A stretch of DNA of 64,000 bases from Patescibacteria group bacterium (GTDB taxonomy: Bacteria; Patescibacteriota; Minisyncoccia; Phycocordibacterales; UBA9973): assembly GCA_040390725.1 (NCBI GenBank), contig JAZJXT010000002.1, positions 28,450 through 92,449 on the forward strand, written 5' to 3'. The notes below the pieces were generated by a model. The model had not been told where the DNA came from. It ran no database searches and worked only from the letters and a program-made list of their open reading frames with translations. The position numbers were made by a program, and so were the translations under genes. This document shows positions 11,095 to 48,568 of the stretch, piece after piece; position 1 is the first letter of the stretch; each line of letters begins with the position of its first letter.

Positions 11095-11186
11095 AAATAG
11101 CATGGTATACTTATTATTATAAAAATAAAATTATTATCAAAAAATTATTAGCCCCGACGCAAGTCGATTAAAATATTAAAAAAATT

Positions 11187-17372: not shown

Positions 17373-17420
17373 TTAGCAAGTAGCTCGTAAGGATTTTTCT
17401 TACGCTTGTGTTGTTCTTAC

Positions 17421-17449
17421 AAAAAAATCCCCATGACGGGGATTTTTTT
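17421..17449 (+). terminator. rho-independent terminator after the giant gene
   Basis: aaaaaaatcccc atgac ggggattttttt: perfect stem flanked by an A-run and a T-run (bidirectional). Confidence 0.6.
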
Positions 17450-17463
17450 GGTATAATAAGTGT
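17449..17463 (+). promoter_or_regulatory. extended -10 (TGgTATAAT) abutting the pilB start codon; a leaderless or near-leaderless pilB mRNA is possible
   Basis: tataat at 17452-17457 with TG at 17449-17450; ATG at 17464. Confidence 0.3.
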
Positions 17464-19215: not shown

Positions 19216-19216
19216 A

Positions 19217-20434: not shown

Positions 20435-20435
20435 A

Positions 20436-20903
20436 ATGAGAAATTTTTATCAAAAGGGAATAACATTAGTTGAGACTTTGGTTGCAGTGGCTATCATTGT
20501 TCTCATTCTTGCTATTGTTTTGCCTTCTTTTAATACAATAAAAAAAAATAATATTTTGAAAAGTACCACTGAAGATATTTTTTCAGCTCTGGACAATGCT
20601 CATTCACAGACTCTCTCGTCTGTGAGTTCGTCCACGTATGGGGTGCACTTTCAGTCTGATAAAGTTGTGATTTTTAAAGGCACAGTTTATTCATCGAATG
20701 ATGTAAATAATAAAACTGTAAATATAAACTTTCCGGCAAGTATTTCAAATGTAAATTTTAATAGTGTGAGTGCAATTTCCGGTGATATATACTTTGCTCA
20801 TCTGACTGGAGTGCCGAGCAAGACCGGTACGGTGACCATTGCTGTTTCTTCCAGTACAAAAATAATTACGATTTCAGCAACGGGGAATTTTAGTATAAAT
20901 TAA
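20436..20903 (+). CDS. prepilin-type N-terminal cleavage/methylation domain protein (pilin/pseudopilin)
   Basis: KG|ITLVETLVAVAIIVLILAIV: class III signal with Glu+5. Confidence 0.8.
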   Translation: MRNFYQKGITLVETLVAVAIIVLILAIVLPSFNTIKKNNILKSTTEDIFSALDNAHSQTLSSVSSSTYGVHFQSDKVVIFKGTVYSSNDVNNKTVNINFPASISNVNFNSVSAISGDIYFAHLTGVPSKTGTVTIAVSSSTKIITISATGNFSIN

Positions 20904-20905
20904 TC

Positions 20906-21343
20906 ATGATAAATTTTCTTAAAAATATAAAAGAAAAAAGAAATAAAGCCGGATTTTTAATGGTTGAAGTCATTGTGGCTATTTCTATTATTACCGCTTC
21001 TGTTTTGTCAGCGATGGCAGTCGCCCAAAAGGCAGTATCTATTTCCAGACAATCAGTTCATTCCGCACAAGCCGCATTCTTATTGGAAGAAGGTTCAGAG
21101 AATGCCCGAATATCGAGAGATAATGCATGGGCCAATGTTGCAAGCATAAACACAACAGAGACAATAGGTATTTTTACAAGGACGGTGGTGGCTTCTAGTG
21201 TATTGCGAAATGTGACGACGGGAGCTATTGGCTCCGGAGTCAGTGATGCCAATACAAAATTAATAACTGTCACGGTTTCTTGGAAGGAGGGAGCTACGAC
21301 TTTATCAAAAACTTTACCATTTTATTTGGTAAATATTTTTTAA
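20906..21343 (+). CDS. prepilin-like protein
   Basis: AG|FLMVEVIVAISIITASVL. Confidence 0.7.
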   Translation: MINFLKNIKEKRNKAGFLMVEVIVAISIITASVLSAMAVAQKAVSISRQSVHSAQAAFLLEEGSENARISRDNAWANVASINTTETIGIFTRTVVASSVLRNVTTGAIGSGVSDANTKLITVTVSWKEGATTLSKTLPFYLVNIF

Positions 21344-21350
21344 TAATTAT

Positions 21351-21866
21351 ATGCAAATATTTTTCAAAAATAAAAAATTAATAAATAGCGGCGGGTATGC
21401 TTTGGTGGAAACTATTTTTTACATTGCTATTTTAGGTATTCTTTCTACGGCTGTTATCAGTGCTTTGGTGACTATGGGAAAAACATTCAAAGAAACTGTC
21501 GCACAAACGGCATTATTGCAAAGTTCCTCTATTATGGAAAGAATGTCCAGAGAAGTACGGCAAGACTATAGCGCAACTTTAGTCAGTTCAACTGATTTAA
21601 TCTTAAAAGATTCCGCCGGAGTAAATAAAACGGAATTCAAGCTTTCTGGTACTGATTTGCAATTATTGGAAGGTTCCGGTTTAACTTTTACCGGTAACTT
21701 GAATTCTCCAAATGTTACAGTTACAGCTTTGAGTTTTACACAGATTACAACCACACAAGGAAAAGCATTTAAAGTGGTCATGTCAGTCAGATACACTTTA
21801 GGGTCAGTTGTTCGCACTGCGGATTTTTATGATACAGTTACATTGAGGGGAAGTTATGTGCATTAA
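21351..21866 (+). CDS. prepilin-like protein
   Basis: GG|YALVETIFYIAILGILSTAV. Confidence 0.7.
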   Translation: MQIFFKNKKLINSGGYALVETIFYIAILGILSTAVISALVTMGKTFKETVAQTALLQSSSIMERMSREVRQDYSATLVSSTDLILKDSAGVNKTEFKLSGTDLQLLEGSGLTFTGNLNSPNVTVTALSFTQITTTQGKAFKVVMSVRYTLGSVVRTADFYDTVTLRGSYVH

Positions 21867-21868
21867 TT

Positions 21869-23188
21869 ATGAAAATAAAAAATAAAAAAATAAAATATAA
21901 TTCCGGCGCGGCGATGCTCATATCTGTGATATTTTTTCTTTTTATTTCTTTGGCGATTATTGCCGGACTTGTTTCTCCTTCAGTGCGAGAATTTAAAATT
22001 GCCAGGGATTATTTGCAGTCCAGGCAAAGTTTCTTTTTGTCTGAATCTGCTATTGAAGATTCTTATTATCGTATAAATAATAGCTTGCCACTTGGTTCGA
22101 CAGATACTTTGACTATCGGCAGTACTACGGCGACAGCTACTATTGTGGCTGACGATGTTAATAATAAAACCATTACATCTCTTGGTGATTTATCTTCAAG
22201 ACAAAGAACAAATCAATTAAAAATAAATTCCAATTCTTCGGTAGTTTTTGCTTATGGAACACAGGCAGGTGAGGGGGGAATTATTTTTTTACAGAATACA
22301 GGATTAGTCGGTAATTTGTATTCCAATGGACCTATTGCGGGATATAGTAATGCTTATGTGACAGGTAATGCGTATGCTGCTGGCAGTTCAGGAACAATCA
22401 CTACGAGTGGCGGTTCTTTTTGCATAGGGGGTTTTACTTCAAATAATCATTGTACATTAAATTCTAGTGATGCTCATGCTCATACAATAACAGGGACGAC
22501 AGTAGCAGGTACTCTATACTGCCAAACAGGTTCTTCTAATAGTACTTCTTGCAATACAACCCAAGCAGACCCGGCAGTTATTTCTTTGCCTGTAACTGAT
22601 GCAAATATTACTACATGGAAACACGATGCTGCTACAGGAACTATTATTAATGGTGATTATACTGTCTCTGCGGATACTACTCTCGGCACAGCAAATGCCA
22701 CGGAAATTACTGGAAATCTTACAGTGAATAGCCGTACTACTCTTACAATTGCAAATACTATTTATGTTGTTGGAAATATTGTAATTAACGGTGATTTACA
22801 AATGGCATCTATTTACGGACCACACAGCGCAGTGATTATTGCAGATGGCTTGATTTCAACTGGTGGAGGTGTTCATGTTTATGATTCCGGAACTGCTGGG
22901 AGCTATGTAATGTTACTTTCAACTAGCACTTGCGATGAAAATACTTCTACTGGCCCTTGTAGCGGGCATAATGCTATGGATATAGGAAATAGCTCTGATA
23001 TTATGATTATTAATGCGCAGAATGGAACTGTTTATATGGCTAATGGCGGAAACGCAAAAGAAGTTGTTGGACAAAAAATACGCTTAAAGAATAATACTGT
23101 TGTTACTTATGGTACTGGTTCCACTACTGCTAATTTTTTGAGTGGTATTGGTAATGTTTGGCGGGTTTCGAGCTGGCTCGAGATATAA
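21869..23188 (+). CDS. large pilin-like / pilus-associated protein (439 aa)
   Basis: Pilin-like hydrophobic N-terminus SGAAMLISVIFFLFISLAIIAGLV lacking Glu+5. Thr/Gly/Asn-rich C-terminal beta-rich domain. Confidence 0.5.
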   Translation: MKIKNKKIKYNSGAAMLISVIFFLFISLAIIAGLVSPSVREFKIARDYLQSRQSFFLSESAIEDSYYRINNSLPLGSTDTLTIGSTTATATIVADDVNNKTITSLGDLSSRQRTNQLKINSNSSVVFAYGTQAGEGGIIFLQNTGLVGNLYSNGPIAGYSNAYVTGNAYAAGSSGTITTSGGSFCIGGFTSNNHCTLNSSDAHAHTITGTTVAGTLYCQTGSSNSTSCNTTQADPAVISLPVTDANITTWKHDAATGTIINGDYTVSADTTLGTANATEITGNLTVNSRTTLTIANTIYVVGNIVINGDLQMASIYGPHSAVIIADGLISTGGGVHVYDSGTAGSYVMLLSTSTCDENTSTGPCSGHNAMDIGNSSDIMIINAQNGTVYMANGGNAKEVVGQKIRLKNNTVVTYGTGSTTANFLSGIGNVWRVSSWLEI

Positions 23189-29973: not shown

Positions 29974-32139
29974 ATGCGAGATAAAATATTTTATTTTACT
30001 TGTTTTGGTTTCGCCCTAGGAGTGCTTTTGCGCTCTTTTGTTTTTGTGAATTTTTATACGGCTATTTTTGCCGGAGTGATTGCTGTTTTTCTTTTATTAT
30101 TTTTCACTTTGATTTCTAAAAATAATCAGGGCATAGTCGCCAGTATTTTTATCATAACTTTTTCACTGGGAATTATACGTTTTCATATTGCCGACGAGCC
30201 TGCACCGTATATTTATGAGTCTCAAGTCGGCAGTAGTGTAGAATTCTCCGGTGAAATAATCGACGAGCCGAGCATTAAAGAAAAAAATATCAGTTTAACT
30301 GTACTTTTGGCTCCTCAAGGTTCTGCCTCGGGCTTACTAGAGGCAAAACCTTTTCCCGCCAAAACAGAAATTTTAATCACTACTGATTTTGCAGGGGATT
30401 ATAAATATGGTGATGAAATAAATTTCAAGGGTAAGCTAGAAAAACCGGAGAACTTTATGACGGATCAAGGGAAGGAATTTGATTATGTAAATTATCTGCG
30501 TAAAGATGGGATTTTTTATGTGATGAAATATCCAAAAATTGAAGTTATTTCACGCGGGCATGGGAACTTTTTAAAAAATATTTTATTTTCTGCGAAAGAA
30601 AAGTTTTTAGAAAAAATGAATATGGCAATATCTGAGCCGGAGTCATTGTTAATGGGCGGGCTTATCTTGGGAGAGAAATCTTCATTTAGTCAGGCATTGC
30701 GACAATCTTTCGTAAATACCGGCACGATACATATAGTAGCTCTTTCTGGATATAACGTGACCATTGTCGCTGAATGGATTATGAAACTCTTCTCATTCTT
30801 GCCGAAAAATTTAGGCATAGGAATGGGTATTTTGTCTGTGATTCTTTTTATAATAATGTCAGGCGGGAGTTCTACGGCTATTCGCGCCGGAGTGATGGCA
30901 GTTTTGGCACTCTTCGCTCGTGCGACAGGGAGGAATTATGATGTAGGGCGAGCATTAGTACTCGCCGGGATAATAATGATTTTATTTAATCCTTTTGTTT
31001 TGGCTTTTGATGTGTCTTTTCAACTTTCTTTTATCGCTACCATTGCTGTGATTTTCTTGTCGCCGAGAATTGAAAAATATTTTCTTTGGGTGCCCAAGCG
31101 TTTTGAGTTGCGGGATATTATTTCTGTCACCTGCGCGGCGTATATTTTTGTTCTTCCTTTTATTTTATACAAAATGGGTAATTTGTCGCTCGTAGCGTTG
31201 CCGGCGAATATTATGATTTTGCCTTTTATTCCTATTACGATGATATTTGGTTTTCTCACAGGTTTTGCCGGAATTATTTGGCATTTCTTGGCTTTGCCTT
31301 TCGGCTATGTTTCGTATTTTTTATTGCATTACGAACTCAGCACTATTAGTTTCTTTTCAAATTTACCTTTTGCGTCATTTTCTATCCCTAATTTTCCATT
31401 AATTTTAACTTTAGTAATTTATGCATTTATGCTCTGGAAAATTTTTAGGTATCCTTTGCCGGAAAAAAAAGAAGAAATTAAAAAAGAGAAAAAATTCAGA
31501 ATAAACGATATTTTAAAATCTAAATTTAAGTTTTTAATTTTGTTATTTATTTGTTCGGTAATTATTTTAAGTAGTTTTTATTTTTATTATTCAAACAGAG
31601 AACAAAATAATATTGCTGAGCAAAAACTGCAAGCACTTTTATTAAAAACTCCGACGCATCTTCTTGTTCTTGAATCAAGGGATAAAGACAACGATTGTCG
31701 GGTTAGGGGGCCTTTGCCTGATCCTGATTGCAGTCCGGGGGCAGTATTTACCGATAAAACATTGGAACAAATATGCGTGCGTGGGTATACAAAAACTGTC
31801 CGTAATGTTTCTACGAATTTAAAAAAGAAAATTTATGCCGAATATAGTATAGCGTATCCGGCACCAAAAGGTTCTTACGAAGTAGACCACATTATTCCTC
31901 TTGAACTCGGAGGTAGTAATGACATATCAAATTTATTTCCAGAATCAGCCGAGCCTATGCCAGGCTTTCGTGAGAAAGATTTAGTAGAAAATTATTTGCA
32001 CCAAGAATCTTGCGCCGGCAACGTCGCCTTGTCTGTCGCGCAATATCAAATAGCCACTGACTGGCTAGCTGTTTATAATAGCTTGAGTCCTGATCAAATC
32101 ACCGCATTAAAAAATCAATATCACAATTGGTCGTATTAA
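29974..32139 (+). CDS. comEC: ComEC/Rec2 DNA-uptake channel protein with a C-terminal HNH-nuclease-like domain
   Basis: DUF4131/OB region, then the competence domain (LMGGLILGEKS...VNTGTIHIVALSGYNVTIV, multiple TMs). The C-terminal ~150 aa has YEVDHIIPLELGGSNDISNLFP (HNH-like) in place of the beta-lactamase-like domain. Confidence 0.8.
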   Translation: MRDKIFYFTCFGFALGVLLRSFVFVNFYTAIFAGVIAVFLLLFFTLISKNNQGIVASIFIITFSLGIIRFHIADEPAPYIYESQVGSSVEFSGEIIDEPSIKEKNISLTVLLAPQGSASGLLEAKPFPAKTEILITTDFAGDYKYGDEINFKGKLEKPENFMTDQGKEFDYVNYLRKDGIFYVMKYPKIEVISRGHGNFLKNILFSAKEKFLEKMNMAISEPESLLMGGLILGEKSSFSQALRQSFVNTGTIHIVALSGYNVTIVAEWIMKLFSFLPKNLGIGMGILSVILFIIMSGGSSTAIRAGVMAVLALFARATGRNYDVGRALVLAGIIMILFNPFVLAFDVSFQLSFIATIAVIFLSPRIEKYFLWVPKRFELRDIISVTCAAYIFVLPFILYKMGNLSLVALPANIMILPFIPITMIFGFLTGFAGIIWHFLALPFGYVSYFLLHYELSTISFFSNLPFASFSIPNFPLILTLVIYAFMLWKIFRYPLPEKKEEIKKEKKFRINDILKSKFKFLILLFICSVIILSSFYFYYSNREQNNIAEQKLQALLLKTPTHLLVLESRDKDNDCRVRGPLPDPDCSPGAVFTDKTLEQICVRGYTKTVRNVSTNLKKKIYAEYSIAYPAPKGSYEVDHIIPLELGGSNDISNLFPESAEPMPGFREKDLVENYLHQESCAGNVALSVAQYQIATDWLAVYNSLSPDQITALKNQYHNWSY

Positions 32140-32147
32140 ATAAAATT

Positions 32148-32744
32148 TTATTTTGCTGCTAAAAAGTTATTTTCAATAACTTCCCAGTTTAGATTTTCAA
32201 AAAATGCTTCGATGTATTTTTTCTTTTCGCTTGTTGCATAGTCGTAGACATAAGCATGTTCCCACATATCAATTCCTAAAACCCAAGACAGTCCGTTTAG
32301 TTGGCCCAAGTGTTGCTCGTCTATCCATGCTGGCACGAGTTGCTCTGTTTGTTTATCCCAGTAAATTACCGCCCAGCCTATTCCTCTGGTCATCGCAAGA
32401 GTTTTAAATCCACCGAGCCATGCTTCCATTGTGCCTGCTTGTTTTTCCATTTCTTTTTTGAGTTCCGAATTTTCTGGCAATGATTTTGCTCCACCTTCTA
32501 GCGAGGAGAAATAATATTCATGATTACGCATACCATTAAATTCAAATCCGACTCGGCGCATAAGTTCTCCGACAACATATGTATTTTTTTCTGGATCACT
32601 TGTCATAAGTTCACCGACTTTTTCATAAATTAAATTTATATTTTTTACATAGCCTGCGTAGAGCTTTAAATGCTCCTCGATATTTTTTTTAGAGATGCCT
32701 TTTAATTCCGCAATATTAAACTTTCGTTCGTCAAATTTTTCCAT
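32148..32744 (-). CDS. Fe/Mn superoxide dismutase
   Basis: HEYYFSSL, DMWEHAYVYDY and WIDEQH motifs. Confidence 0.9.
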   Translation of the reverse strand: MEKFDERKFNIAELKGISKKNIEEHLKLYAGYVKNINLIYEKVGELMTSDPEKNTYVVGELMRRVGFEFNGMRNHEYYFSSLEGGAKSLPENSELKKEMEKQAGTMEAWLGGFKTLAMTRGIGWAVIYWDKQTEQLVPAWIDEQHLGQLNGLSWVLGIDMWEHAYVYDYATSEKKKYIEAFFENLNWEVIENNFLAAK

Positions 32745-39284: not shown

Positions 39285-39560
39285 ATGAAAAAGGGAATTA
39301 ATTATAAATATTTGGAAAGAATAATAAAAGGCGGAGCTAATCATCGCCGACTCCAAATACTTTTTCTCTTGGAAAAGAATCCGGGCCTGTCTGTGGAGTT
39401 GGTGTCTGAAATGTTGAATGTAAACTTCGTTACCATAGCTAGTCATTTACAGAAATTGCATCACTCCGGTCTTATTACTAAAAAATACATCGGGCGAACA
39501 GTTATTCACGATATCACGCCGAGAGGAAAGAACATTATGACATTATGTAGAATGTTGTAA
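39285..39560 (+). CDS. ArsR/SmtB-family winged-helix transcriptional regulator
   Basis: HRRLQILFLLEKNPGLSVELVSEMLNVNFVTIASHLQKLHHSGLI. Confidence 0.65.
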   Translation: MKKGINYKYLERIIKGGANHRRLQILFLLEKNPGLSVELVSEMLNVNFVTIASHLQKLHHSGLITKKYIGRTVIHDITPRGKNIMTLCRML

Positions 39561-39628: not shown

Positions 39629-42600
39629 ATGTTCAAAATTAAATACTCGAAGTTTTTGTTTCTATTTTTTACTTTCTCTGTCGCCGTTGGCATTTTTTCT
39701 TTTTCACATCAGGCTTTCGCTTCGACTGTTGTGACTGACGATATTATTGATGATACGACTTGGACTCTGGATGGCAGTCCGTATTTGGTGGATGGTTATG
39801 TGCCTGTTTATTCTACGCTTACCATAGAGCCGGGCGTAGTAGTGCAAAATGGCAGTTTAGATATTTTTGGAACTTTAAAGGCCGAAGGCACGAGCGACCA
39901 GCATATTTCTTTTACTTCATCTATAATTTATTTTGACGGATCTACAGGATCTTCCTTAAAATATATTGATATTTCTCACGAGCATGTCGGGATGTCTTTT
40001 TGGGCTAGTGATGCATCTATTTCAAATATTAATGCGCAGTATAATGATACGGATTTATATATAGAAGGAGGTAGTAGTATTTCTATTTCTGATTCTAGTT
40101 TTTCCAATGCGAAATACGATTCTATTTATATAGAGGACGGTTCTTTGAGTGCAAATAATTTAACAATTGAGGGAGGGTCGCAATATTATGAAGCAGTCCG
40201 GGTGCGGTTTGGTCAGGTTTCTATGGTTGATTCAGTTATTCAAAATATACCTGACGGCGAAGCTTTGGCTGTCGGTAGACTTAGCAATGTAGACCTGGAG
40301 AGAACAAATATTAAAAATGTGGGCAGAGGATTCTGGGTTGATGAGAGTAGTACTACGAATATAAATGATTCTACTTTGGACAACACTTACGTTTACGCTT
40401 TTGCTTGCGCATCTTTTAATGCTGATAATAGTATATTTAAAAATAGTATTTGGGGCGCGATTATTGATTTTGGACAAGGATGTGAATTTAACATTGTAAA
40501 TAGTAAATTTATAAATAATCAAGACGGATTTTATATTTTTAACAATGGAAGTTATCCGGAATCTGTCTACAATATTTCCAATTCTGAAATTTCCGGCAAC
40601 ACACAATACGGAGTTTATTCTCAAGCTTCGTATCCTGTAGATTTTACAAAAACTTGGTGGGGCGATGCATCCGGTCCGCAACATCCGGACTTAAACTCCA
40701 CCGGCCTTGGCAACGCAGTTTCTGATGGCGTCCTTTTTGACCAGTGGTGCAAAAATGAAACTTGTAAAACAAAAACCCCGGTGATAATTATTCCGGGAAT
40801 CTTAGGGTCAATTCTTTCTAAGAATTATGGGGATAGTAGCGAGATGTGGCCGAATATAAATACATTACTCACTTCTTTCTTTGATGGATTTATGGATGAT
40901 TTGGCTTTGCAGGCGGACGGCACCGAAGACCCGGCCATGCCTGTGAGCGTCGGCGATATTTTGCGCAAGGTTGATGTATTGGGTAATACTGTCACAGATA
41001 CTTGGTCAGGACTTATAGATAAATTAACTACATCTGTGATCGGCGGATATGTCGAAGGCACCGACCTTTTTGTTTTTCCTTATGATTGGCGCAAGAGTGA
41101 TGCAGATACAGCAGTGCTTTTGAAAGATAAAATTGACGCAGTGCTGGCACAAACAGGCGCGGAAAAGGTGGATATTATTTCACATTCAATGGGTGGGCTT
41201 ATTGCCGAGAAATATATTGCGGATAACGGTAAAGATAAAATAAATAAATTATTTTTCATAGGCACGCCTCACCTCGGCGCGCCAAAGGCATTCAAGGCTT
41301 TGATGTATGGGGATGATATGAATATAAAATTTGGAAGTTATAGTGTTCTTTATCCAGCTGAAATGAAAAAGATTTCTCAAAATATGCCGTCTGCTTTTGA
41401 TTTATTACCGAGTCGTATTTATGTGGATGGTAATCCGAATGCGAGTATAGTTTTGCCGAATCAATATGTCTATGACGCAGTCGCAGGTAAATGGCTCAAT
41501 TATGATGAGACGAAAAATTTTATGATTACGGATGGCAGGAATGCGGATATTTTTCCACAAGCGGATGACTTGCATCAAGTAGTGGATAAAGTAGACCTGA
41601 GCGGAGTGGATGTTTATAATTTTGCCGGTTGTGGGATGACGAAAACTCTTTCTACCATTACTGCTAAAAAAGAAAAATCCTGGACTTCGCTTTGGCAAAA
41701 AGTCGTGGATGATTATGATTTAGGTTTTACCAATGGTGATGAGACTGTGCCACTGATTTCCGCTTCCGGTCAGTATCAAAATCAATATTTTATAAAAGGC
41801 GCGACTCATTCAGAGTTGCCATCTACTGCTGGAGTGCCAGAAACTATTTTAGCTTTGCTTTCGGGGGATGCTGTTCCTATGGAAACAAATATTTCTACTG
41901 ATAGTAATAATTTCTGTGATGTGACAGGGCGTGTAGTTTCTACACATAGTCCTGTGACTATGCATATTTATGATGACAATGGACACCACACAGGACCGAC
42001 AGATAATGGCGACATAGAATACGGCATTCCTGGTGTGTCGTATGATGTGATAGGGGGTGATGCTTTTGCGTTCTTGCCTGAAGGTGGTAATTATAAAGTA
42101 GTAAATAAAGCGACGGACACGGGAGCGTATGATTTTTATATAAAAGATATAGGGGCGAATGATGCAATAACAAATGAAACATATTTTAATGAAATTCCTC
42201 TCACGAATTTGGCATCAAGTTCAGAAATAGATTTTACACCTTCAGGTAATGATTATAAAATTAAAATGGATCAAGATGGCGATAATACTTTTGAAAAAGA
42301 ATTTGCGCCATCGTCCAGCCTGGGTGCAACGCAAGCAAATGATTTAACTGCGCCGGAAACTACAGCGAGTGTCGCAGGCAGGAATCTTTCTTTTTCTTCG
42401 ACTGATGAAAATTCCGGAGTATTAAAAACAGAGTATTCTATTGATGATGGTGTTAGTTGGGTTTTATATAATTCTGCATTCAATGCATCAGGAAAAACTG
42501 TGAAATATTTTTCTACTGATAAGGCTGGCAATATTGAGAGTATAAAAGAAATAATAGTGCCGAAACGTCATACTGCGTATGTTGAAGATGTAGTGGAAGA

Positions 42601-42958
42601 CCCTAAGCCGGTTGAAAATCAAGAAGTCGCTCATTCTTCAGAATGCAGTGGGTGTAATGTTTTATCTCAAAATCCTGTTGAAATAACTCCTATTGCAAAG
42701 GAAATTGTTGCCGTGGCTACAGTAACATCGGATAAAATAATTATTCCCGAGCAGAAAAAAGTTTTATCTAAAAATCAAAAAACTATTGTCAAATCTGAGC
42801 AAGTTTTTAAAGCTAGCAAGGAGGTGGCAAAAAATGCTAAAATAGAAGTATTGCCGGAAATGATTACGGCGTCAGCCATAAATGCCGACAATAGCGCAGG
42901 ATTTTGGAGCAGAGTCGGGAATTTTATTAAAAGCATATTTTACAGAAAGAAAAAATAA
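39629..42958 (+). CDS. large secreted protein (1109 aa): parallel beta-helix repeats + lipase/esterase (alpha/beta-hydrolase) domain + Ig-like 'DKAGN' module
   Basis: Signal peptide ending HQAFA|ST. Beta-helix-type repeats (residues ~60-330). Lipase motifs PVIIIPGILGS, IISHSMGGLIAEKY (GxSxG), GTPHLGAP. C-terminal YSIDDGVSWVLY...STDKAGNIE. Confidence 0.7.
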   Translation: MFKIKYSKFLFLFFTFSVAVGIFSFSHQAFASTVVTDDIIDDTTWTLDGSPYLVDGYVPVYSTLTIEPGVVVQNGSLDIFGTLKAEGTSDQHISFTSSIIYFDGSTGSSLKYIDISHEHVGMSFWASDASISNINAQYNDTDLYIEGGSSISISDSSFSNAKYDSIYIEDGSLSANNLTIEGGSQYYEAVRVRFGQVSMVDSVIQNIPDGEALAVGRLSNVDLERTNIKNVGRGFWVDESSTTNINDSTLDNTYVYAFACASFNADNSIFKNSIWGAIIDFGQGCEFNIVNSKFINNQDGFYIFNNGSYPESVYNISNSEISGNTQYGVYSQASYPVDFTKTWWGDASGPQHPDLNSTGLGNAVSDGVLFDQWCKNETCKTKTPVIIIPGILGSILSKNYGDSSEMWPNINTLLTSFFDGFMDDLALQADGTEDPAMPVSVGDILRKVDVLGNTVTDTWSGLIDKLTTSVIGGYVEGTDLFVFPYDWRKSDADTAVLLKDKIDAVLAQTGAEKVDIISHSMGGLIAEKYIADNGKDKINKLFFIGTPHLGAPKAFKALMYGDDMNIKFGSYSVLYPAEMKKISQNMPSAFDLLPSRIYVDGNPNASIVLPNQYVYDAVAGKWLNYDETKNFMITDGRNADIFPQADDLHQVVDKVDLSGVDVYNFAGCGMTKTLSTITAKKEKSWTSLWQKVVDDYDLGFTNGDETVPLISASGQYQNQYFIKGATHSELPSTAGVPETILALLSGDAVPMETNISTDSNNFCDVTGRVVSTHSPVTMHIYDDNGHHTGPTDNGDIEYGIPGVSYDVIGGDAFAFLPEGGNYKVVNKATDTGAYDFYIKDIGANDAITNETYFNEIPLTNLASSSEIDFTPSGNDYKIKMDQDGDNTFEKEFAPSSSLGATQANDLTAPETTASVAGRNLSFSSTDENSGVLKTEYSIDDGVSWVLYNSAFNASGKTVKYFSTDKAGNIESIKEIIVPKRHTAYVEDVVEDPKPVENQEVAHSSECSGCNVLSQNPVEITPIAKEIVAVATVTSDKIIIPEQKKVLSKNQKTIVKSEQVFKASKEVAKNAKIEVLPEMITASAINADNSAGFWSRVGNFIKSIFYRKKK

Positions 42959-42962
42959 AAAC

Positions 42963-43310
42963 ATGAAAGACCAAATAAATAATTTTTTTCATACGGACAA
43001 ATGGTGGGGGAAGACCATTTTTATAATTTTGATTTATGCAGTTTATTGGTGCGTGTTTTATGGAGTTTGGTTTTTAATTCCACCTGATAATTTTGATAAA
43101 AATACTGATATAAGTGGAATTTTGTTTTTAATACTTAATTTAGCAGTTGTGCCTATTATTAGTTTTTTCATTCCGTATTTTATAAAAAAACTTTTTACGA
43201 TAAATAAAGTAGTATTGTATGTCTTACATAGTTTTCTTTTATTAATATCTGTTGCATTATTTATATTTTTAGCTATTATCTCAGCTTTATCTCATATTCA
43301 AATTGGTTAA
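42963..43310 (+). CDS. small polytopic membrane protein
   Basis: Start at the ATG at 42963 (MKDQINNFFHTDKWW); three hydrophobic segments. Confidence 0.45.
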   Translation: MKDQINNFFHTDKWWGKTIFIILIYAVYWCVFYGVWFLIPPDNFDKNTDISGILFLILNLAVVPIISFFIPYFIKKLFTINKVVLYVLHSFLLLISVALFIFLAIISALSHIQIG

Positions 43311-43393
43311 TTCGTAAGAACAGTCTCTGTGCGGTTAATAAAATGCTTATTTACCAAAATACCCAGTAAATACTGGATATTTTGTATTTTTAC

Positions 43394-43422: not shown

Positions 43423-43568
43423 TTGCATAGTATTTTGCTCGTTGAAAAACATATTGATATTTTCCCTATATTAACTAAGTTCACTATTAAATTAGCGATT
43501 TCAGTTAATACAGGGAAATGCCGAACACCCTTTTCCAAAGTAGGCACTTATGTCAATTTCATACACCA

Positions 43569-44168
43569 ATGAAAAAATTCATTTTAATTTCAACCGTGGC
43601 TTTCTTTATGGTTCTGGCTTTAACAAGTTGTTCAGATAATAAAGAAGAAAAATCAGTAAAACAGGAGGCACTTGCTGTGGGGGTAGTAAAAACAGAAACC
43701 CCTAAGGTTTCTGTTTCAGAAATATCCTCAAGCGAATTACTTTCAAAAATTGATACTTCAAAAATTAAAACCTTCGATGACTATTACGCTTTGAAGCAAA
43801 AACTTTTTGACGAGTATTATGCATTAAAGCAAGAGTCATTCGATGATTATTACAGCAATAAACATCGTGCTTTTGATCAGTATTGGACTAAAAAACAAAA
43901 TGCTTTGATGGTTGTTCGTGAAAAACATAATTCAAAGTATCTTGAATGGTTGGATACTGAAAAGATGAGTAGGTATGATAAGCAGATGGTAATTGAAAAA
44001 TCACCTGAGTTTGCTGATTATATTTTGGTTGAAAAAACTGAATATAAAAAGTATGAAGAAATTGAAAAATCTTTATACGTCGCATATGAGCAAATCGAGC
44101 AGGGTAGTTATAAAGAATATACCCAAAAAGAACAGTTAGCTTATAAGGCATATCAGATTAATCATTGA
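43569..44168 (+). CDS. lipoprotein with FDDYYALKQ repeats
   Basis: Lipobox LALTS|C; repeated FDDYYALKQKLFDEYYALKQESFDDYYSNK; Tyr/Glu/Lys-rich. Confidence 0.55.
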   Translation: MKKFILISTVAFFMVLALTSCSDNKEEKSVKQEALAVGVVKTETPKVSVSEISSSELLSKIDTSKIKTFDDYYALKQKLFDEYYALKQESFDDYYSNKHRAFDQYWTKKQNALMVVREKHNSKYLEWLDTEKMSRYDKQMVIEKSPEFADYILVEKTEYKKYEEIEKSLYVAYEQIEQGSYKEYTQKEQLAYKAYQINH

Positions 44169-44315: not shown

Positions 44316-44903
44316 ATGGAAATTTTAAAAATTATTTTTGCCGTTTTAGGAACAGTCGTTTTTATTTTTGGCTATGTTCCGTATTTTCGTGATATATTTA
44401 AAAAGCGTACAAAGCCTCACGCGTACACTTGGTTGATTTGGTCTATCACTCAAGGCACGGCTGCCGCAGGAATTTTATATGGAGGCGGAGGTGTCGGCGC
44501 TACCCAATTAATCGTCGGCTTGATTCTTGTTTTTTTGGTTTTTGTTTTATCTCTTAAATATGGAACAAAAAATATCACTTGGCATGACACGGTCCTATTG
44601 ATTTTAGCCTTGATTGCAGTATTTGTCTGGTGGCAATTACACGATGCCGCGCTCTCTATGTTAATGGTTACAGGCATAGACGCGCTCGGATATATTCCAA
44701 GCTATAGAAAATCTTGGCAAAATCCCTGGGATGAAACTTTATCTTCTTGGCTTATTTTTTCTGTCGGAAATGTGTTTGCGATAATGGCTCTTGAAAAATA
44801 TAATCTTTTAACCTTTTCCTATCTTTTAATGAGCATAACTTTGAATATAATTATGATTTTTTTGTGCGCATGGCGAAGACGGAGGATACCAAAGCCGGCG
44901 TAG
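44316..44903 (+). CDS. polytopic membrane protein (195 aa), unknown function
   Basis: 5-6 predicted TM segments; Gly-rich loop GILYGGGGVGA. Confidence 0.45.
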   Translation: MEILKIIFAVLGTVVFIFGYVPYFRDIFKKRTKPHAYTWLIWSITQGTAAAGILYGGGGVGATQLIVGLILVFLVFVLSLKYGTKNITWHDTVLLILALIAVFVWWQLHDAALSMLMVTGIDALGYIPSYRKSWQNPWDETLSSWLIFSVGNVFAIMALEKYNLLTFSYLLMSITLNIIMIFLCAWRRRRIPKPA

Positions 44904-44977
44904 ATTTAAAAAACTCGCATCTTTTTAATGTAAATAATCATTTGTAATTCAGCCCTATTTTGTGCTATATTTCAGTA

Positions 44978-47900
44978 ATGTCTGAAGAAAAAAATAATAA
45001 AAATACAAAATCAATAAATGCAGAGAGGGAGGAGAAAATTCTGAAATTCTGGGCGGAAAATAAAATTTTTGAAAAATCTATTGAAAAAGAAGCGCCGAAG
45101 GGGAATTATGTTTTTTATGATGGTCCGCCTTTTGCAACGGGGTTGCCACACTACGGGCATATCTTGGGAAGCACTGTGAAAGATGTCATCGGGCGGTATC
45201 AGACGATGCGTGGATTCCGTGTGCCTAGGCGTTGGGGTTGGGATTGTCACGGTTTGCCTATTGAAAATATCGTGGAAAAAGATTTGGGAATTTCCGGACG
45301 GAAAGCCATTGAAGAATTTGGTATTGATAAATTTACCGAGCACGCGCGGAGTAAAGTGCTGACTTATGTGGAAGAATGGCGAAAGACTGTGAACCGCATG
45401 GGGCGATGGGTGGATTTTGATAATTCTTATAAGACAATGGACAATACTTTTATTGAAAGTGTGTGGTGGGCGCTCGGCGAATTGCATAAAAAAGAATTGT
45501 TGTATGAGGGTGTGCGAGTACTCGCGTATTGTCCGAGGTGTGAGACGCCTATCGCAAATTCTGAAATTGCGATGGATAATAGTTATAAAGATATTACTGA
45601 TATTTCTGTGTACGTGAAGTTTAAGATAATCACCGACCAAGAAATTTCTAGGTCCTCGGGTCGCGTCGCTTCTGAGGTTTTTCCTGCGGAAAAACAAACG
45701 AAGCTAGCTCAACCAGACGCTAAAAATTCCTTGGTCGGCTCGTATCTTTTAGCTTGGACGACGACGCCGTGGTCTTTGCCGGGGGATACTGCTCTAGCGA
45801 TAAATAAAAATATAAAATATGTGAAAGTTGAACACAATGGCGAATTTTATATTTTGGCGGAAGATAGAATAAAATTCGTGCCGACATTGAAAGATATAGA
45901 ATTTAAAAAAGGAGAAAATATGTGGGATGTAAATGCGGAGGAACTTATTGGTAAAAGTTACGAACCGCCTTTTGATTATTATAAAAATGCAGACTTGCCG
46001 CACAAAGAAAATATTTGGAAAATTTGGCATGCAGATTTTGTGACTATTGATGCGGGTACGGGTATAGCGCACGAGGCGCCGGCTTTTGGTGAGGAAGATA
46101 TGAACTTGGCAAAGGAAAATAATATTCCTTTTATTCGACATGTCGAGCCGAACGGAGTTTTCTCAAAAGAAGTGACGGATTTCGCTGGAACAAAAGTAAA
46201 ACCAAAAGAAGACCATCAGTCGGGAGATGTTTTGATAATAAAATATTTAGCAGGGAAAGGTTTGCTTTTTGCGAAAGAAAAAATAATCCACTCGTATCCG
46301 CATTGTTATAGATGTGATACGCCTTTGCTTTATTACGCTTTGCCGTCGTGGTTTGTAAATATTCAAAAAGTAAAAAATGATTTGCTTGAAAAAGCGCAAG
46401 AGATGAACTGGATTCCGGCGCATTTAAAAGACGGACGTTTTAAAAACATAATGGAAAACGCGCCGGATTGGACTATTTCTAGGAATAGATATTGGGCAAG
46501 TCCTTTGCCTATTTGGAAATCAGAAAGTGGAAAAATAATGATGGTGAGTTCACTCGAAGATTTGAGAAATAAAACAAAAAAATCAGGAAATAAATTTTTC
46601 GTAATGCGTCACGGGGAAGCAGATCATAACGTGAAACAGCTTTGCAGTAGTGGACCAAATGACCCGCATCATTTGACGGAAAATGGAAAAGCAAAGGCAA
46701 AAGAATCCGCCCAGAAATTAAAAAATGAAAAAATAGACTATATATATGTATCGCCATTTGTGCGCACAAAAGAAACAGCAGAAATTGTCGCAAAAGAAAT
46801 AGGTTTATCCTCGGATAAAATAATTATAGATAATCGTTTACATGAAGTAAATTGGGGGGATTTTGATGGTAAAACTTTTGCAGAAGGCATGGCTTTTGTT
46901 AAAGAAAAAATGATGACCGCAGATGTACCATTGCCAAATGGCGAGTGTTGGCAGGATGTGAAAAATAGAGTGGGGGATTGTATTTACGACGTTGATTCAA
47001 AACATAAAAATTCTAATATTTTATTTGTCGGGCATGGAGGCACATTGGAAATCTTGCCAACTATTGCAAAAGGTTTTAACCAAACAGAAACTATGCAAGA
47101 AGTAATGCGGACAGTAGGAGGGAAAGTTTATGTCCCTGGAGAATTTTATGAATTAAATTTTGTTTCCATACCGCATAATGCAAAATATGAACTCGACCTG
47201 CACCGACCTTATATAGATGCAATAATTTTGGCAGACGAAAAAGGAGAAGAGTATAAAAGAATTCCTGAAGTTATCGATTGTTGGTTTGAGTCCGGCTCGA
47301 TGCCTTTTGCGCAGGACCATTTTCCATTTGAGAATCCAAATTGGCAGAAAGAAAATTTCCCCGCAGGTTTCGTGGCGGAATACATAGCGCAGACGAGGAC
47401 ATGGTTTTACTATACGCATGCAATTTCTACGATGCTCTTTGAGCATGCGCCATTTAAAAATGTCGTGACCACTGGCACAGTGCTCGCGGAAGACGGCAGT
47501 AAAATGTCTAAATCAAAAAATAATTTCCCTGACCCTTGGATATTGTTTGAAAAATACGGCGTGGATGCTTTGCGTTTTTATTTGATGTCTAGTCCTTTGA
47601 TGAAAGGGGAAGATGTGAACTTCTCTGAAAAATCTGTGCAGGAAATCTCCAGTAAAATAATAGGCCGACTCGATAATGTTTTTGCTTTTTATGAATTATA
47701 CAGAGACAGAAATTTAGAAAGTGAAAATGCAAAACCTGAAAGTAAAAATGTTTTGGATATTTGGATTCTATCTCGATTGGAACAATTGATTTCTGAAGCA
47801 ACAAAAAATATGGAAGCTTATGATTTGGCTTTGGCGACGCGACCTTTTGAATTATTTATGGAAGACCTTTCGACTTGGTATTTGCGTCGTTCACGCGAGA

Positions 47901-48568
47901 GATTAAAAGATGGTGACAAAGATGCCAGACAAACTTTATATTTTGTTTTGAAAAATACTGTAAAATTACTCGCTCCTTTTACACCGTTTATTTCGGAAGA
48001 TATTTGGGCAAAATTAAGAAACGAAAACGATGTAGAGAGTGTGCATTTAGCTGAATGGCCAGAAGTATCAGTGGTTAATATTTCTACGGATGAAATGCAA
48101 ATTGCAAAGATGCAGATTGTAAGAAATTTTGTTTCTCTTGGCTTAAAAGAAAGACAAAAAGCGGGAATCCCTGTCAGGCAACCGCTTAAATCAATCAGTG
48201 TTTCAAATATGGTTTTAGAAAGTTATTACAAAGATCTTATTAAAGATGAGTTGAATGTAAAAGAAGTTTTGGAAATATCTTTAAATGAAGGTGAAGTAAA
48301 ACTTGATACAGAAATAACTCCAGAATTAAAAATGGAAGGGGATTATCGCGAGCTAGTGCGAGCTGTGCAAGACATGCGAAAAGCAAAAGGTTTAATGCCG
48401 AGCGATATTATTACGTTGACTATTGATACTGATACAAAAGGTCAAGAAATAATAAATAAATTTAAAGAAGAATTCTTGAAAGTTGTCGGCGCGAAAGAAA
48501 TAATGTTTGGCGAAAATGATGGAATGGAAGTAAAAATTGATTCTCTAATTTTTAAGATTAAAATATAA
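44978..48568 (+). CDS. ileS: isoleucyl-tRNA synthetase carrying an internal histidine-phosphatase-like domain
   Basis: PPFATGLPHYGHILG (HIGH), KMSKSKNN, WTISRNRYWASPLPIW, zinc knuckles CPRCETP/CYRCDTP. ATG at 44978. Residues ~520-740 form an RHGE...HGG phosphatase-like insertion. Confidence 0.9.
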   Translation: MSEEKNNKNTKSINAEREEKILKFWAENKIFEKSIEKEAPKGNYVFYDGPPFATGLPHYGHILGSTVKDVIGRYQTMRGFRVPRRWGWDCHGLPIENIVEKDLGISGRKAIEEFGIDKFTEHARSKVLTYVEEWRKTVNRMGRWVDFDNSYKTMDNTFIESVWWALGELHKKELLYEGVRVLAYCPRCETPIANSEIAMDNSYKDITDISVYVKFKIITDQEISRSSGRVASEVFPAEKQTKLAQPDAKNSLVGSYLLAWTTTPWSLPGDTALAINKNIKYVKVEHNGEFYILAEDRIKFVPTLKDIEFKKGENMWDVNAEELIGKSYEPPFDYYKNADLPHKENIWKIWHADFVTIDAGTGIAHEAPAFGEEDMNLAKENNIPFIRHVEPNGVFSKEVTDFAGTKVKPKEDHQSGDVLIIKYLAGKGLLFAKEKIIHSYPHCYRCDTPLLYYALPSWFVNIQKVKNDLLEKAQEMNWIPAHLKDGRFKNIMENAPDWTISRNRYWASPLPIWKSESGKIMMVSSLEDLRNKTKKSGNKFFVMRHGEADHNVKQLCSSGPNDPHHLTENGKAKAKESAQKLKNEKIDYIYVSPFVRTKETAEIVAKEIGLSSDKIIIDNRLHEVNWGDFDGKTFAEGMAFVKEKMMTADVPLPNGECWQDVKNRVGDCIYDVDSKHKNSNILFVGHGGTLEILPTIAKGFNQTETMQEVMRTVGGKVYVPGEFYELNFVSIPHNAKYELDLHRPYIDAIILADEKGEEYKRIPEVIDCWFESGSMPFAQDHFPFENPNWQKENFPAGFVAEYIAQTRTWFYYTHAISTMLFEHAPFKNVVTTGTVLAEDGSKMSKSKNNFPDPWILFEKYGVDALRFYLMSSPLMKGEDVNFSEKSVQEISSKIIGRLDNVFAFYELYRDRNLESENAKPESKNVLDIWILSRLEQLISEATKNMEAYDLALATRPFELFMEDLSTWYLRRSRERLKDGDKDARQTLYFVLKNTVKLLAPFTPFISEDIWAKLRNENDVESVHLAEWPEVSVVNISTDEMQIAKMQIVRNFVSLGLKERQKAGIPVRQPLKSISVSNMVLESYYKDLIKDELNVKEVLEISLNEGEVKLDTEITPELKMEGDYRELVRAVQDMRKAKGLMPSDIITLTIDTDTKGQEIINKFKEEFLKVVGAKEIMFGENDGMEVKIDSLIFKIKI

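Follow-up and report, generated by a model that had tools for sequence, protein, structure and literature searches.

What might a patescibacterium do with a large exported protein in which a parallel beta-helix is joined to a lipase? Patescibacteria (CPR) account for a large part of bacterial diversity. According to earlier reports, they do not synthesise lipids (PMC7242380, PMC11665869); CPR bacteria are described as being without complete fatty-acid and phospholipid synthesis, yet with ordinary acyl-lipid membranes that are enriched in lysolipids, possibly through phospholipase A (PMC7242380). Here, we describe a gene that bears on the question of where such lipids come from.

The window, i.e. 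the whole 64-kb stretch of DNA that was analysed, contains at positions 39629-42958 of the forward strand an open reading frame with an ATG start and a translation of 1109 aa. The protein is identical to NCBI MES2023404.1, whose record name is ‘MAG: alpha/beta fold hydrolase [Patescibacteria group bacterium]’. An earlier note, made from the letters alone, had described it as a secreted fusion of a beta-helix, a lipase and an Ig-like module. We recovered exactly this ORF and located every motif quoted for it: PVIIIPGILGS (384-394), IISHSMGGLIAEKY (516-529), GTPHLGAP (545-552), YSIDDGVSWVLY (936-947) and STDKAGNIE (962-970). The domain HMM searches suggested at that time returned matches to the LCAT, Beta_helix, PGAP1 and OmpL47-type models, all well beyond chance. 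The overall anatomy stands, but a second sandwich (757-905), a putative C-terminal anchor and a linked downstream membrane gene had been overlooked. From the N-terminus, the order is signal peptide, beta-helix, LCAT domain, sandwich, OmpL47-type domain, linker and amphipathic helix. The features are as follows:

39629..42958, + strand: whole gene, encoding a 1109-aa multidomain LCAT-family hydrolase, predicted to be exported (ORF listing, Pfam, NCBIfam)
39629..39721, + strand: predicted Sec-type signal peptide, residues 1-31, read by eye from the sequence; helix 5-24 in the model
39725..40768, + strand: right-handed parallel beta-helix, residues 33-380, with conserved N-cap and C-cap and a fast-evolving core
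40769..41884, + strand: LCAT/LPLA2-type alpha/beta-hydrolase domain, residues 381-752; contains PYDWR (484-488) and the N-terminal subdomain specific to LCAT (W407)
41186..41188, + strand: Ser520 codon, nucleophile in the H-S-M-G-G elbow, invariant in 65/65 and aligned with AHSMG of LPLA2
41738..41740, + strand: Asp704 codon, triad acid in N-G-D-E-T-V-P, invariant in 65/65
41807..41809, + strand: His727 codon, putative triad base in G-A-T-H-S-E-L, from invariance in 65/65 and position in the model
41897..42343, + strand: family-specific beta-sandwich, residues 757-905, strongly conserved (C763..HSPV..IYD..GNHTGP..IE)
42344..42574, + strand: OmpL47-type Ig-like beta-barrel, residues 906-982, with the ‘DKAGN’ motif (NCBIfam NF047446)
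42578..42901, + strand: disordered linker, residues 984-1091, pLDDT 30-42, poorly conserved
42902..42955, + strand: C-terminal amphipathic helix and basic end (FWSRVGNFIKSIFYRKKK), modelled as a helix over residues 1092-1108 (pLDDT ~58)
42963..43310, + strand: partner gene, 115 aa, three predicted TM helices, starting 5 nt past the lipase stop codon

Sequence comparison gives good support for an enzyme of the LCAT/LPLA2 type. Pfam LCAT (PF02450) matches residues 405-598 with an E-value of 5.4e-21 and 75.7 bits against a cut-off of 21, and the homologues score likewise. PGAP1, Lipase_2 and Abhydrolase_1 also match around the nucleophile elbow; the PGAP1-like match (PF07819, 30.2 bits against 24.3) is limited to profile positions 73-137 of 233 (residues 499-556), the clan-wide elbow region, and lies beneath the stronger LCAT match. 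The core that the earlier note had called LCAT/PGAP1-like, with its elbow and GTPHLGAP, is borne out by the LCAT model. LPLA2 is matched by a profile of the family at 1e-14, in an alignment that pairs the Ser and Asp motifs, and both LPLA2 and LCAT match the full domain of 320-370 residues, LCAT-specific subdomain and PYDWR included. The W407 region aligns with ‘IWLNLELLLPVIIDCWIDN’ of LPLA2, PYDWR 484-488 aligns with the PYDWR of LPLA2 and LCAT, and the overall fold of the LCAT family is present with its cap and membrane-binding subdomains.

The catalytic triad, whose completeness the earlier note had singled out as decisive, is intact: S520, D704 and H727 are invariant in all 65 aligned sequences, as are PYDWR and W407. 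The family motif ‘NGDgTVP’ around Asp704 aligns with ‘GDGDGTV’ of human LPLA2. In a search of the hydrolase C-terminal third (residues 655-760) against PDB only noise was returned, and the LPLA2 His was not aligned; it is the invariance of His727 and its place in the model, in the loop past the last core strand (E718-723) and at the start of helix 727-732, that suggest its equivalence to the triad His of LPLA2.

The closest known enzymes are LPLA2 (group XV PLA2, PDB 4x90) and LCAT (PDB 5txf/4xx1), both of PF02450. They have in common with the query the AHSMGG elbow, PYDWR, the GDxTV acid motif and a Trp-containing N-terminal subdomain, which in LPLA2 and LCAT binds membranes or lipoproteins. 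They are also secreted, contain disulfides and act at lipid interfaces, all of which is predicted for the query. However, both are soluble eukaryotic glycoproteins with a single domain (~380-420 aa), whereas the query domain lies inside a predicted bacterial surface protein of 1109 aa that adds a beta-helix, a sandwich probably held by another disulfide (C668-C763), as well as an Ig-like domain and a putative membrane tail. A fold does not by itself specify the substrate, and glycerophospholipid is the putative one here.

The N-terminal module matches Pfam Beta_helix (PF13229) above the gathering threshold (E 4e-9), and its fold, too, is that of a beta-helix. It had been estimated at ~270 aa; the module is present, but spans about residues 33-380 (~340 aa). 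The description ‘pectate-lyase-like’ holds for the right-handed beta-helix fold and not for the family or its catalytic columns: at E<=1, none of the pectate-lyase families of Pfam matches anywhere in the protein, nor does a Pfam glycosidase HMM, and the beta-helix carries no conserved catalytic or Ca-binding site of the pectate-lyase kind. Both caps are conserved (N-cap DTxWT..SPY, C-cap NWWGDASGP). Between them, none of the 235 columns of the core (residues 101-335) is at least 90% conserved, compared with 50 of 370 in the lipase domain, and median identity among homologues is 20% in the beta-helix versus 47% in the LCAT domain. The homologue alignment reveals no conserved candidate catalytic or ligand-binding residues in the core.

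Relatives that keep the LCAT domain and sandwich swap the beta-helix for DUF5018, an RCC1 propeller or unknown modules. Among its best structural neighbours are non-enzymatic adhesins, NosD and depolymerases; the neighbours include Vag8, PfbA, pertactin and EtpA on the adhesin side, phage receptor-binding proteins, capsule depolymerases, alginate lyases and phage tailspikes. Because its core lacks conserved columns, because it is replaceable and because adhesins are among its neighbours, we infer that the beta-helix is a non-catalytic stalk or adhesin. The closest known counterparts are beta-helix surface adhesins (Vag8, PfbA, pertactin), phage receptor-binding proteins (Andhra gp15, PDB 8egr; K1 capsule lyase) and NosD. 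Like the module of phage receptor-binding proteins, it is N-terminal, outward-facing and rapidly diverging. It differs from these counterparts in having no evident trimerisation or autotransporter elements, and in being fused in cis to a lipase instead of being carried on a virion or an outer-membrane barrel. PHROGs gave no match for the lipase, so that the resemblance to phage tail proteins is one of fold and not of sequence. The earlier note had imagined polysaccharide binding by the beta-helix, coupled to attack on or remodelling of a host envelope. Both may apply, and both gain plausibility because the organism belongs to the Patescibacteria, a group reported to be without lipid synthesis (PMC7242380, PMC11665869).

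Past the lipase, where one beta-sandwich had been described, there are two modules: the family-specific sandwich (757-905), followed by the OmpL47-type domain (906-982). A C668-C763 disulfide probably staples the former to the hydrolase domain; in one homologue, both cysteines are lost together. The latter is the ‘DKAGN’ Ig-like module already recognised from the letters, now confirmed by NCBIfam NF047446 on residues 918-975 (E 2.3e-12, 47.2 bits against a cut-off of 40). OmpL47-type domains are common Ig-like spacers in surface proteins. The DxAGN motif is common to the query domain and the Leptospira surface protein OmpL47, and the query has the domain in single copy. Since it is missing from 8/64 relatives (present in 56/64), the domain is accessory and lies outside the conserved core.

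The cysteines of the tail (C1006/C1009) were correctly noted, although their setting is a disordered linker of ~110 aa that ends in an amphipathic helix (1092-1109). Alignment occupancy is 0.41 over residues 981-1075, and ITASAINADNS (1079-1089), a motif of the family, closes the linker. In many homologues, the tail has three parts, L(T/S)A(S/N)(V/A), a TM helix and KRFIKL, with the TM helix and basic end at the position that corresponds to the terminal helix of the query, and the TM-type tails of homologues have a mean hydrophobicity of 0.70-0.83. The terminal helix of the query has a mean hydrophobicity of 0.01 and a hydrophobic moment of 0.63, which 7% of shuffles reach. NCBIfam sorting-signal/CTERM models, of the LPXTG, PEP-CTERM and PGF-CTERM kinds and the like, match neither the query nor seven homologues, and the ‘TASA/TASV + TM’ tail occurs in no other ORF of the window or of 88 fetched loci. 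The C-terminal helix may act as a membrane anchor. In the query itself, tethering is uncertain because the helix is amphipathic and not TM, with a moment marginally above that of shuffles, and the protein may be released.

Read from the sequence, the N-terminus has the make-up of a signal peptide: a basic n-region (MFKIKYSK), a hydrophobic core and AFA|S, with predicted cleavage after A31. An N-terminal hydrophobic segment is found in 61/64 homologues. The protein has eight Cys, which form four candidate pairs when grouped by sequence proximity. With its predicted signal peptide and pairable cysteines, the 1109-aa protein reads as a Sec-exported one, in agreement with the secretion proposed earlier.

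Directly downstream lies the gene for MES2023405.1, annotated ‘hypothetical protein’, with a conserved N-terminal FHTDKWWGKT motif. Homologues of this three-TM protein are encoded directly 3' of the lipase at further loci (L001-L004, L006, L085, L086, L087 and the P0006 locus), with four tandem copies at L006. In the converse search from the small protein, a protein of 1165-1214 aa was directly upstream in 3/3 loci; two of these are beta-helix-LCAT proteins and the third (L089) is a 1205-aa contig-end gene without a Pfam record. The partner adjoins the lipase in 11 loci examined, differing neighbourhoods included, and this strict linkage is new here. The partner family is tiny, with 28 clusters in one clade and no Pfam or PHROG match.

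The wider genomic context was taken from the loci of relatives. The lipase gene is surrounded by housekeeping genes (ArgRS, SHMT, thymidylate kinase, IleRS, RecO and similar), and gene order is partly syntenic with relatives, SHMT and ArgRS being close by in several genomes; for these reasons, mobile-element or prophage cargo was ruled out. Among the neighbours scanned, there was no lipid transporter or acyl-activating gene, and no T6SS genes from 28.8 to 57.3 kb. The upstream ArsR-type HTH gene (39285-39560) is not linked to the lipase in relatives, where only two stray HTH matches were seen, and the downstream lipoprotein (43518-44168) and DUF5336-like membrane protein (44316-44903) are likewise unlinked. 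Scans of the window with tRNA and Rfam models were empty, and a promoter/terminator scan stayed at background level. A weak terminator-like site lies at 43363-43376, past the small three-TM gene.

Our tentatively preferred reading, to which we give not quite an even chance, is that of a Sec-exported, surface-tethered serine phospholipase A or acyltransferase of the LCAT/LPLA2 family that acts on host or neighbour membranes. After removal of the signal peptide behind A31, the C-terminal amphipathic helix would keep the protein attached to the membrane of the symbiont itself, perhaps together with the three-TM partner, and the ~110-aa linker would cross the wall. The beta-helix, LCAT domain, disulfide-stapled sandwich and Ig-like domain would form a rigid array, in which the beta-helix, as stalk or variable adhesin, would reach or bind the surface of the neighbouring (host) cell. 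The LCAT domain could then dock on the bilayer via its LCAT-specific N-terminal subdomain, where Ser520, activated by His727/Asp704, would attack a glycerophospholipid acyl ester to give an acyl-enzyme. Transfer of the acyl group to water would yield lysolipid and fatty acid; alternatively, it could pass to an acceptor lipid. These products would be building blocks usable by a symbiont of a lysolipid-rich group reported to make no lipids, and the same reaction would also weaken the target membrane.

Three other explanations were weighed against this one. It is unlikely, though worth taking seriously, that the two genes are an antagonistic pair of lytic toxin and immunity protein, in which the lipase, in the manner of T6SS Tle phospholipases, permeabilises or kills hosts or competitors to free nutrients in general and the three-TM protein shields the producer's membrane. 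PF02450-type lipases are known as T6SS cargo (PMC3942780), and one proposal in the literature is that phospholipases of Patescibacteria compromise host envelopes (PMC11665869). The small gene linked tightly 3' of the lipase, in four tandem copies at L006, recalls toxin-immunity pairs, and the varying N-terminal modules recall polymorphic toxins. A precedent for bacteria using the same fold against the membranes of other bacteria is Tle4/TplE (PA1510), the T6SS antibacterial phospholipase of Pseudomonas aeruginosa (PDB 4r1d, the Tle4-Tli4 complex), which also has a dedicated small partner gene alongside. However, Tle4 is T6SS-delivered, has no signal peptide and has a soluble periplasmic immunity partner, while the query starts with a Sec signal peptide and has no T6SS genes in its scanned neighbourhood, extra domains, a putative C-terminal anchor and a three-TM partner. 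With neither T6SS delivery nor a Tli4-type immunity protein, only the fold is common to the two. The known Tli immunity proteins block the active site as soluble periplasmic proteins or as lipoproteins, a task for which a short-looped three-TM protein exposes little surface. Since the partner is limited to one clade (28 clusters) and the lipase family, with 815 clusters, is far wider, most family members would be without immunity, and the stable, syntenic housekeeping context is not that of a variable toxin island. The toxin reading is compatible with the preferred one and differs mainly in purpose.

Lysolipids have been proposed to ease curvature stress in tiny CPR cells (PMC7242380), and the enzyme could remodel the outer leaflet of the symbiont's own envelope in cis, making lysolipids for curvature or re-acylating scavenged ones, with the beta-helix as an S-layer-like structural part. 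The putative anchor would place it at its own membrane, the context is housekeeping and syntenic, and the co-encoded membrane protein could serve as an acceptor-side partner. Besides hydrolysis, LCAT and LPLA2 also catalyse transacylation. A flexible linker of ~110 aa and a rigid beta-helix of ~340 aa would, however, be odd for acting on the anchoring membrane, the fast-evolving, swappable N-terminal module resembles adaptation to a variable external target, and the module of LCAT domain and sandwich recurs in presumably free-living Chloroflexota with lipid synthesis of their own; we judge this role quite unlikely. Very unlikely is a carboxylesterase for a non-membrane substrate, either an extracellular PHA depolymerase/cutinase-like enzyme or one that deacylates or deacetylates a surface polysaccharide or lipoglycan bound by the beta-helix, itself perhaps an active depolymerase. 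PhaZ7, an extracellular PHB depolymerase, and Bacillus/Burkholderia lipases were weakly matched in NCBIfam and PDB searches, but these matches cover about 30-60 residues at the elbow as against the whole 320-370-residue domain for LPLA2/LCAT. The depolymerases, lyases and tailspikes among the structural neighbours of the beta-helix are likewise offset by the missing pectate-lyase and glycosidase HMM matches and by a core devoid of conserved candidate catalytic residues.

The LCAT domain and the sandwich together are the core that the family conserves. This family is uncharacterised and large, with 815 clusters at 50% identity (E<1e-30), and most of it comes from Patescibacteria, to which nearly all close relatives of the lipase belong. 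Homologues occur in Saccharibacteria (loci L009-L018), a group with cultivated members. The core, in part with OmpL47, also turns up in Chloroflexota that presumably live freely (Kouleothrix, Anaerolineae) and in a few further groups; it is therefore not confined to organisms with a lifestyle of lipid auxotrophy. Literature searches found no published description of the family in CPR, Patescibacteria or Saccharibacteria.

If this is only a generic secreted lipase, the result is an ordinary improvement over the annotation "alpha/beta fold hydrolase". A bolder and rather doubtful proposal is that this family, with its varying N-terminal targeting module, its LCAT-like domain and stapled sandwich, its C-terminal tether and, in the present clade, its dedicated three-TM partner, is the lipid-acquisition machinery still missing for Patescibacteria. 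It would act as a surface transacylase or phospholipase A, drawing acyl chains or lysolipids straight out of the host membrane at the contact site and passing them to the symbiont membrane; if true, this would explain both the lipid auxotrophy and the lysolipid-rich membranes of the group. Because the family is large, conserved, predicted to be exported and catalytically intact, with an LCAT/LPLA2 fold, homologues in Saccharibacteria and an identified nucleophile, S520, from which a clean catalytic mutant is easily designed, it could make the question of the lipid source of Patescibacteria testable. The family is thus a testable, as yet unproven, candidate for how such symbiotic bacteria may cut lipids out of the membranes of other cells.

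The ORF encoding the lipase lies at 39629..42958 (+) and runs from an ATG for 1109 codons, exactly as the earlier note had given it, and the peptide motifs quoted there were all found, at residues 384-394, 516-529, 545-552, 936-947 and 962-970. The domains it had proposed (beta-helix, LCAT/PGAP1-like lipase, OmpL47-type) are each matched far above chance by curated HMMs. Pfam gives LCAT PF02450 (E 5.4e-21, 75.7 bits against a cut-off of 21) and Beta_helix PF13229 (E 4e-9), with PGAP1, Lipase_2 and Abhydrolase_1 also matching around the nucleophile elbow, and NCBIfam gives the OmpL47-type barrel NF047446 (E 2.3e-12). The sequence is already deposited, under a generic automatic name only, as the identical MES2023404.1, 'MAG: alpha/beta fold hydrolase [Patescibacteria group bacterium]'. 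An AlphaFold2 model computed from 65 homologues (mean pLDDT 86, above 90 throughout the folded parts) places the parts of the protein as follows:

Residues 5-24: signal-peptide helix
Residues 33-~375: right-handed beta-helix
Residues 384-750: alpha/beta-hydrolase
Residues 763-900: beta-sandwich
Residues 905-980: second small sandwich, the OmpL47-type domain
Residues 984-1091: disordered stretch
Residues 1092-1108: terminal helix

Five features of the hydrolase are invariant in the 65-sequence alignment (65/65): H519-S520-x-G522-G523, G703-D704-x-x-V707, H727, Y485-D486-W487-R488 and W407. The lipase family profile matches human LPLA2 (4x90) with E 1.1e-14, pairing AHSMGG with AHSMGN, PYDWR with PYDWR, 'NGDgTVP' with 'GDGDGTV', and the W407 region with the N-terminal 'IWLNLELLLP...' segment. 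By structure, too, LPLA2 is the PDB entry that matches the lipase best (Foldseek E 1.5e-13, TM 0.75 on the target); matches to Bacillus lipases, Burkholderia lipases and PhaZ7 are confined to the elbow region. Sequence alignment did not yield an equivalence between His727 and the LPLA2 histidine; its invariance and its modelled position after the last core strand point to His727 as the triad histidine. An incomplete triad, which the earlier note would have counted against its lipase core, was not observed, Ser520, Asp704 and His727 all being invariant. Judged by sequence and model, the catalytic domain is predicted to be a complete LCAT/LPLA2-type enzyme, and we are highly confident of its predicted class, an LCAT-type serine phospholipase A or acyltransferase.

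The N-terminus, with three Lys, a hydrophobic core and then AFA|S, can be read as a Sec signal peptide, predicted to be cleaved after A31, and the same feature is present in 61 of 64 homologues. By sequence proximity, the eight Cys can be grouped into four pairs (260/285, 374/379, 668/763 and 1006/1009). C668 and C763 are each kept in 64 of the 65 aligned sequences, and the sole exception, the homologue P0021, has neither. This pattern fits a putative disulfide stapling the sandwich to the hydrolase; it would also fit an extracellular location. Export of the lipase is strongly expected.

Many homologues (alignment of proteins P0003-P0069) end in a tripartite tail composed of L(T/S)A(S/N)(V/A)xxS with about 10 residues after it, a TM helix and KRFIKL-like basic residues; a crude classifier assigned the TM helix and basic end to 25 of 65 tails. 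The query and its closest relatives retain the motif (ITASAINADNS, 1079-1089 in the query), but an amphipathic aromatic helix, FWSRVGNFIKSIFYRKKK, replaces the TM helix; the corresponding window positions are 42863-42955. This helix has a hydrophobic moment of 0.63, a value reached by 7% of shuffles, and a mean hydrophobicity of 0.01, compared with 0.70-0.83 for TM-type tails. Though the tail resembles a sorting signal, none of the curated sorting-signal/CTERM models matches it, and it is absent from all other ORFs in the window and in the fetched loci. Our reading is that the tail anchors the protein in the membrane and that the folded part stays outside, held by a long flexible tether; for the query itself this is uncertain.

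The description of the beta-helix as 'pectate-lyase-like' holds for its fold only. No pectate-lyase family in Pfam matches the lipase at E<=1, and none of the 235 columns of the beta-helix core (residues 101-335) reaches 90% conservation, so it is not a pectate lyase in a testable sense. In this core the sequences have a median of 20% identity to the query, against 47% in the LCAT domain, where 50 of 370 columns reach 90% conservation; conservation within the beta-helix is limited to its N- and C-terminal caps. DUF5018 stands in for it in a Saccharibacterium relative that keeps LCAT and sandwich, and unassigned N-terminal regions do so in other such relatives. A protein of Kouleothrix aurantiaca (Chloroflexota; locus L027, 3074-6553) keeps LCAT, sandwich and OmpL47 and carries an RCC1-type beta-propeller and CarboxypepD_reg instead, which shows that the N-terminal module is exchanged outside Patescibacteria too. 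Since the module is fast-evolving, swappable and distal, we infer that it is a stalk, or a targeting and adhesion module.

About 70 full-length relatives came up in a word-indexed search, and those that carry a name are Patescibacteria, Paceibacterota, Minisyncoccia or Nomurabacteria. Scanning one genome per GTDB species gave 362 relatives, the best of them from Nomurabacteria, Paceibacterota, Falkowbacteria, Saccharibacteria, Yanofskybacteria, Moranbacteria and other Patescibacteria; among the more distant ones are stand-alone LCAT-like proteins of ~480 aa from Acidobacteriota, Proteobacteria and Streptomyces. Homologues with LCAT plus sandwich also occur in Saccharibacteria (the clade of loci L009-L018), some of which can be cultivated. 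According to domain HMMs built from the alignment, LCAT plus sandwich is the invariant core of the family, found wherever a Patescibacteria locus has the complete gene, and also in a few Chloroflexota and others; beta-helix and OmpL47 domain are both optional parts. Searched exhaustively by HMMER at E<1e-30, query residues 381-905 returned 815 clusters (50% identity); both LCAT and sandwich are covered in all of the top 150. At one locus (P0262, ENA ERZ1426829), a 1214-aa gene and a 1165-aa beta-helix-LCAT gene stand in tandem upstream of one 3-TM partner gene, which suggests that the lipase has expanded by paralogy.

This small partner (window 42963-43310, +; MES2023405.1, 'hypothetical protein') is 115 aa long, is predicted to have three TM helices, carries the conserved motif FHTDKWWGKT at its N-terminus and starts 5 nt past the lipase stop codon. 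All close relatives examined (L001/L002, L003/L004, L085, L086, L087, the P0006 locus and L006) have homologues of 111-119 aa directly 3' of the lipase gene, and the genes around the pair vary among several of these loci. One Paceibacterota genome (L006, 9187-10741) has four tandem, diverging partner copies directly after the lipase gene. In the reciprocal direction, all three loci reached from the partner have a 1165-1214-aa gene directly upstream, beta-helix-LCAT in two and, in L089, a 1205-aa contig-end gene without a Pfam record. The partner family comprises only 28 clusters, has no Pfam or PHROG match, and was not detected adjoining more distant lipase homologues. Lipase and partner are a clade-specific two-gene module, in which the partner may anchor the tail, confer immunity or act as a lipid acceptor.

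The surroundings are housekeeping genes, with RNase H, ComEC, SOD, SHMT, thymidylate kinase, ArgRS, GNAT, PIF1 helicase and a small ArsR-type HTH upstream, and a lipoprotein, a membrane protein, IleRS, HAD hydrolase and RecO downstream; SHMT and ArgRS are near the lipase gene in relatives too. GC content is 32-42% throughout, and the window has no tRNA or Rfam matches. Among the neighbours scanned between 28.8 and 57.3 kb no T6SS genes turned up, and the surroundings bear no signs of a mobile element. In the IleRS (1202 aa, 44960-48568, +) the class-I catalytic domain is split in two by a complete histidine-phosphatase domain (His_Phos_1 in Pfam, E 1.4e-34, residues 547-707, RHG motif), an unusual insertion for an aaRS. 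The ORF at 43518-44168 (+) probably encodes a lipoprotein, an internal start giving MKKFILISTVAFFMVLALTSC with a lipobox-like LTSC; its body has many repeated 'DDYYALKQ/EYYALKQ' segments. It matches no Pfam family, and the fetched loci contain no homologue of it. The gene for a ComEC competence channel (Competence domain + DUF4131; 29974-32139, +) adjoins that for an Fe/Mn superoxide dismutase (32148-32744, -), and DNA-uptake genes are enriched in Patescibacteria according to a 2024 perspective (PMC11665869). A type IV pilus gene set follows two orphan secreted proteins, which may be further host-interaction surface proteins, within 9601-23188 (+):

9601-11094 (+): orphan secreted protein, 497 aa, without Pfam match
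11187-17372 (+): orphan secreted protein, 2061 aa, without Pfam match
17464-19215 (+): PilB-like ATPase
19148-20434 (+): PilC-like platform protein
20436-20903 (+): pilin with N-methylation motif, then two pilin-like ORFs

On the best-supported reading, the lipase is exported, is probably tethered to the surface and acts as a serine phospholipase A or acyltransferase of the LCAT type; its non-catalytic beta-helix would present the enzyme towards other cells. The motive for a host-lipid role comes from the literature on CPR bacteria, which are without complete lipid synthesis and enriched in lysolipids, possibly via phospholipase A and host-derived (PMC7242380). The full host-lipid scenario is tentative, and Chloroflexota that are presumably free-living also have the core module, a reason for caution about any role tied strictly to symbiosis. 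An antagonistic toxin of the Tle kind, for which the small partner would provide immunity, overlaps the main reading in part and seems unlikely. Remodelling in cis of the symbiont's own membrane is slightly less likely still, and a non-lipid esterase or bifunctional depolymerase is the most improbable of these alternatives.

The fold and chemistry of the lipase domain are already familiar from LCAT, LPLA2 and Tle4. We found no description of this lipase family in the literature, and what is new is the architecture, in which a putative targeting module, LCAT domain, apparently stapled sandwich, Ig-like domain and presumed anchor are combined, together with the size of the family, its phyletic concentration in Patescibacteria and its dedicated 3-TM partner. 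The interest of the family would be much higher if a role in lipid acquisition were demonstrated.
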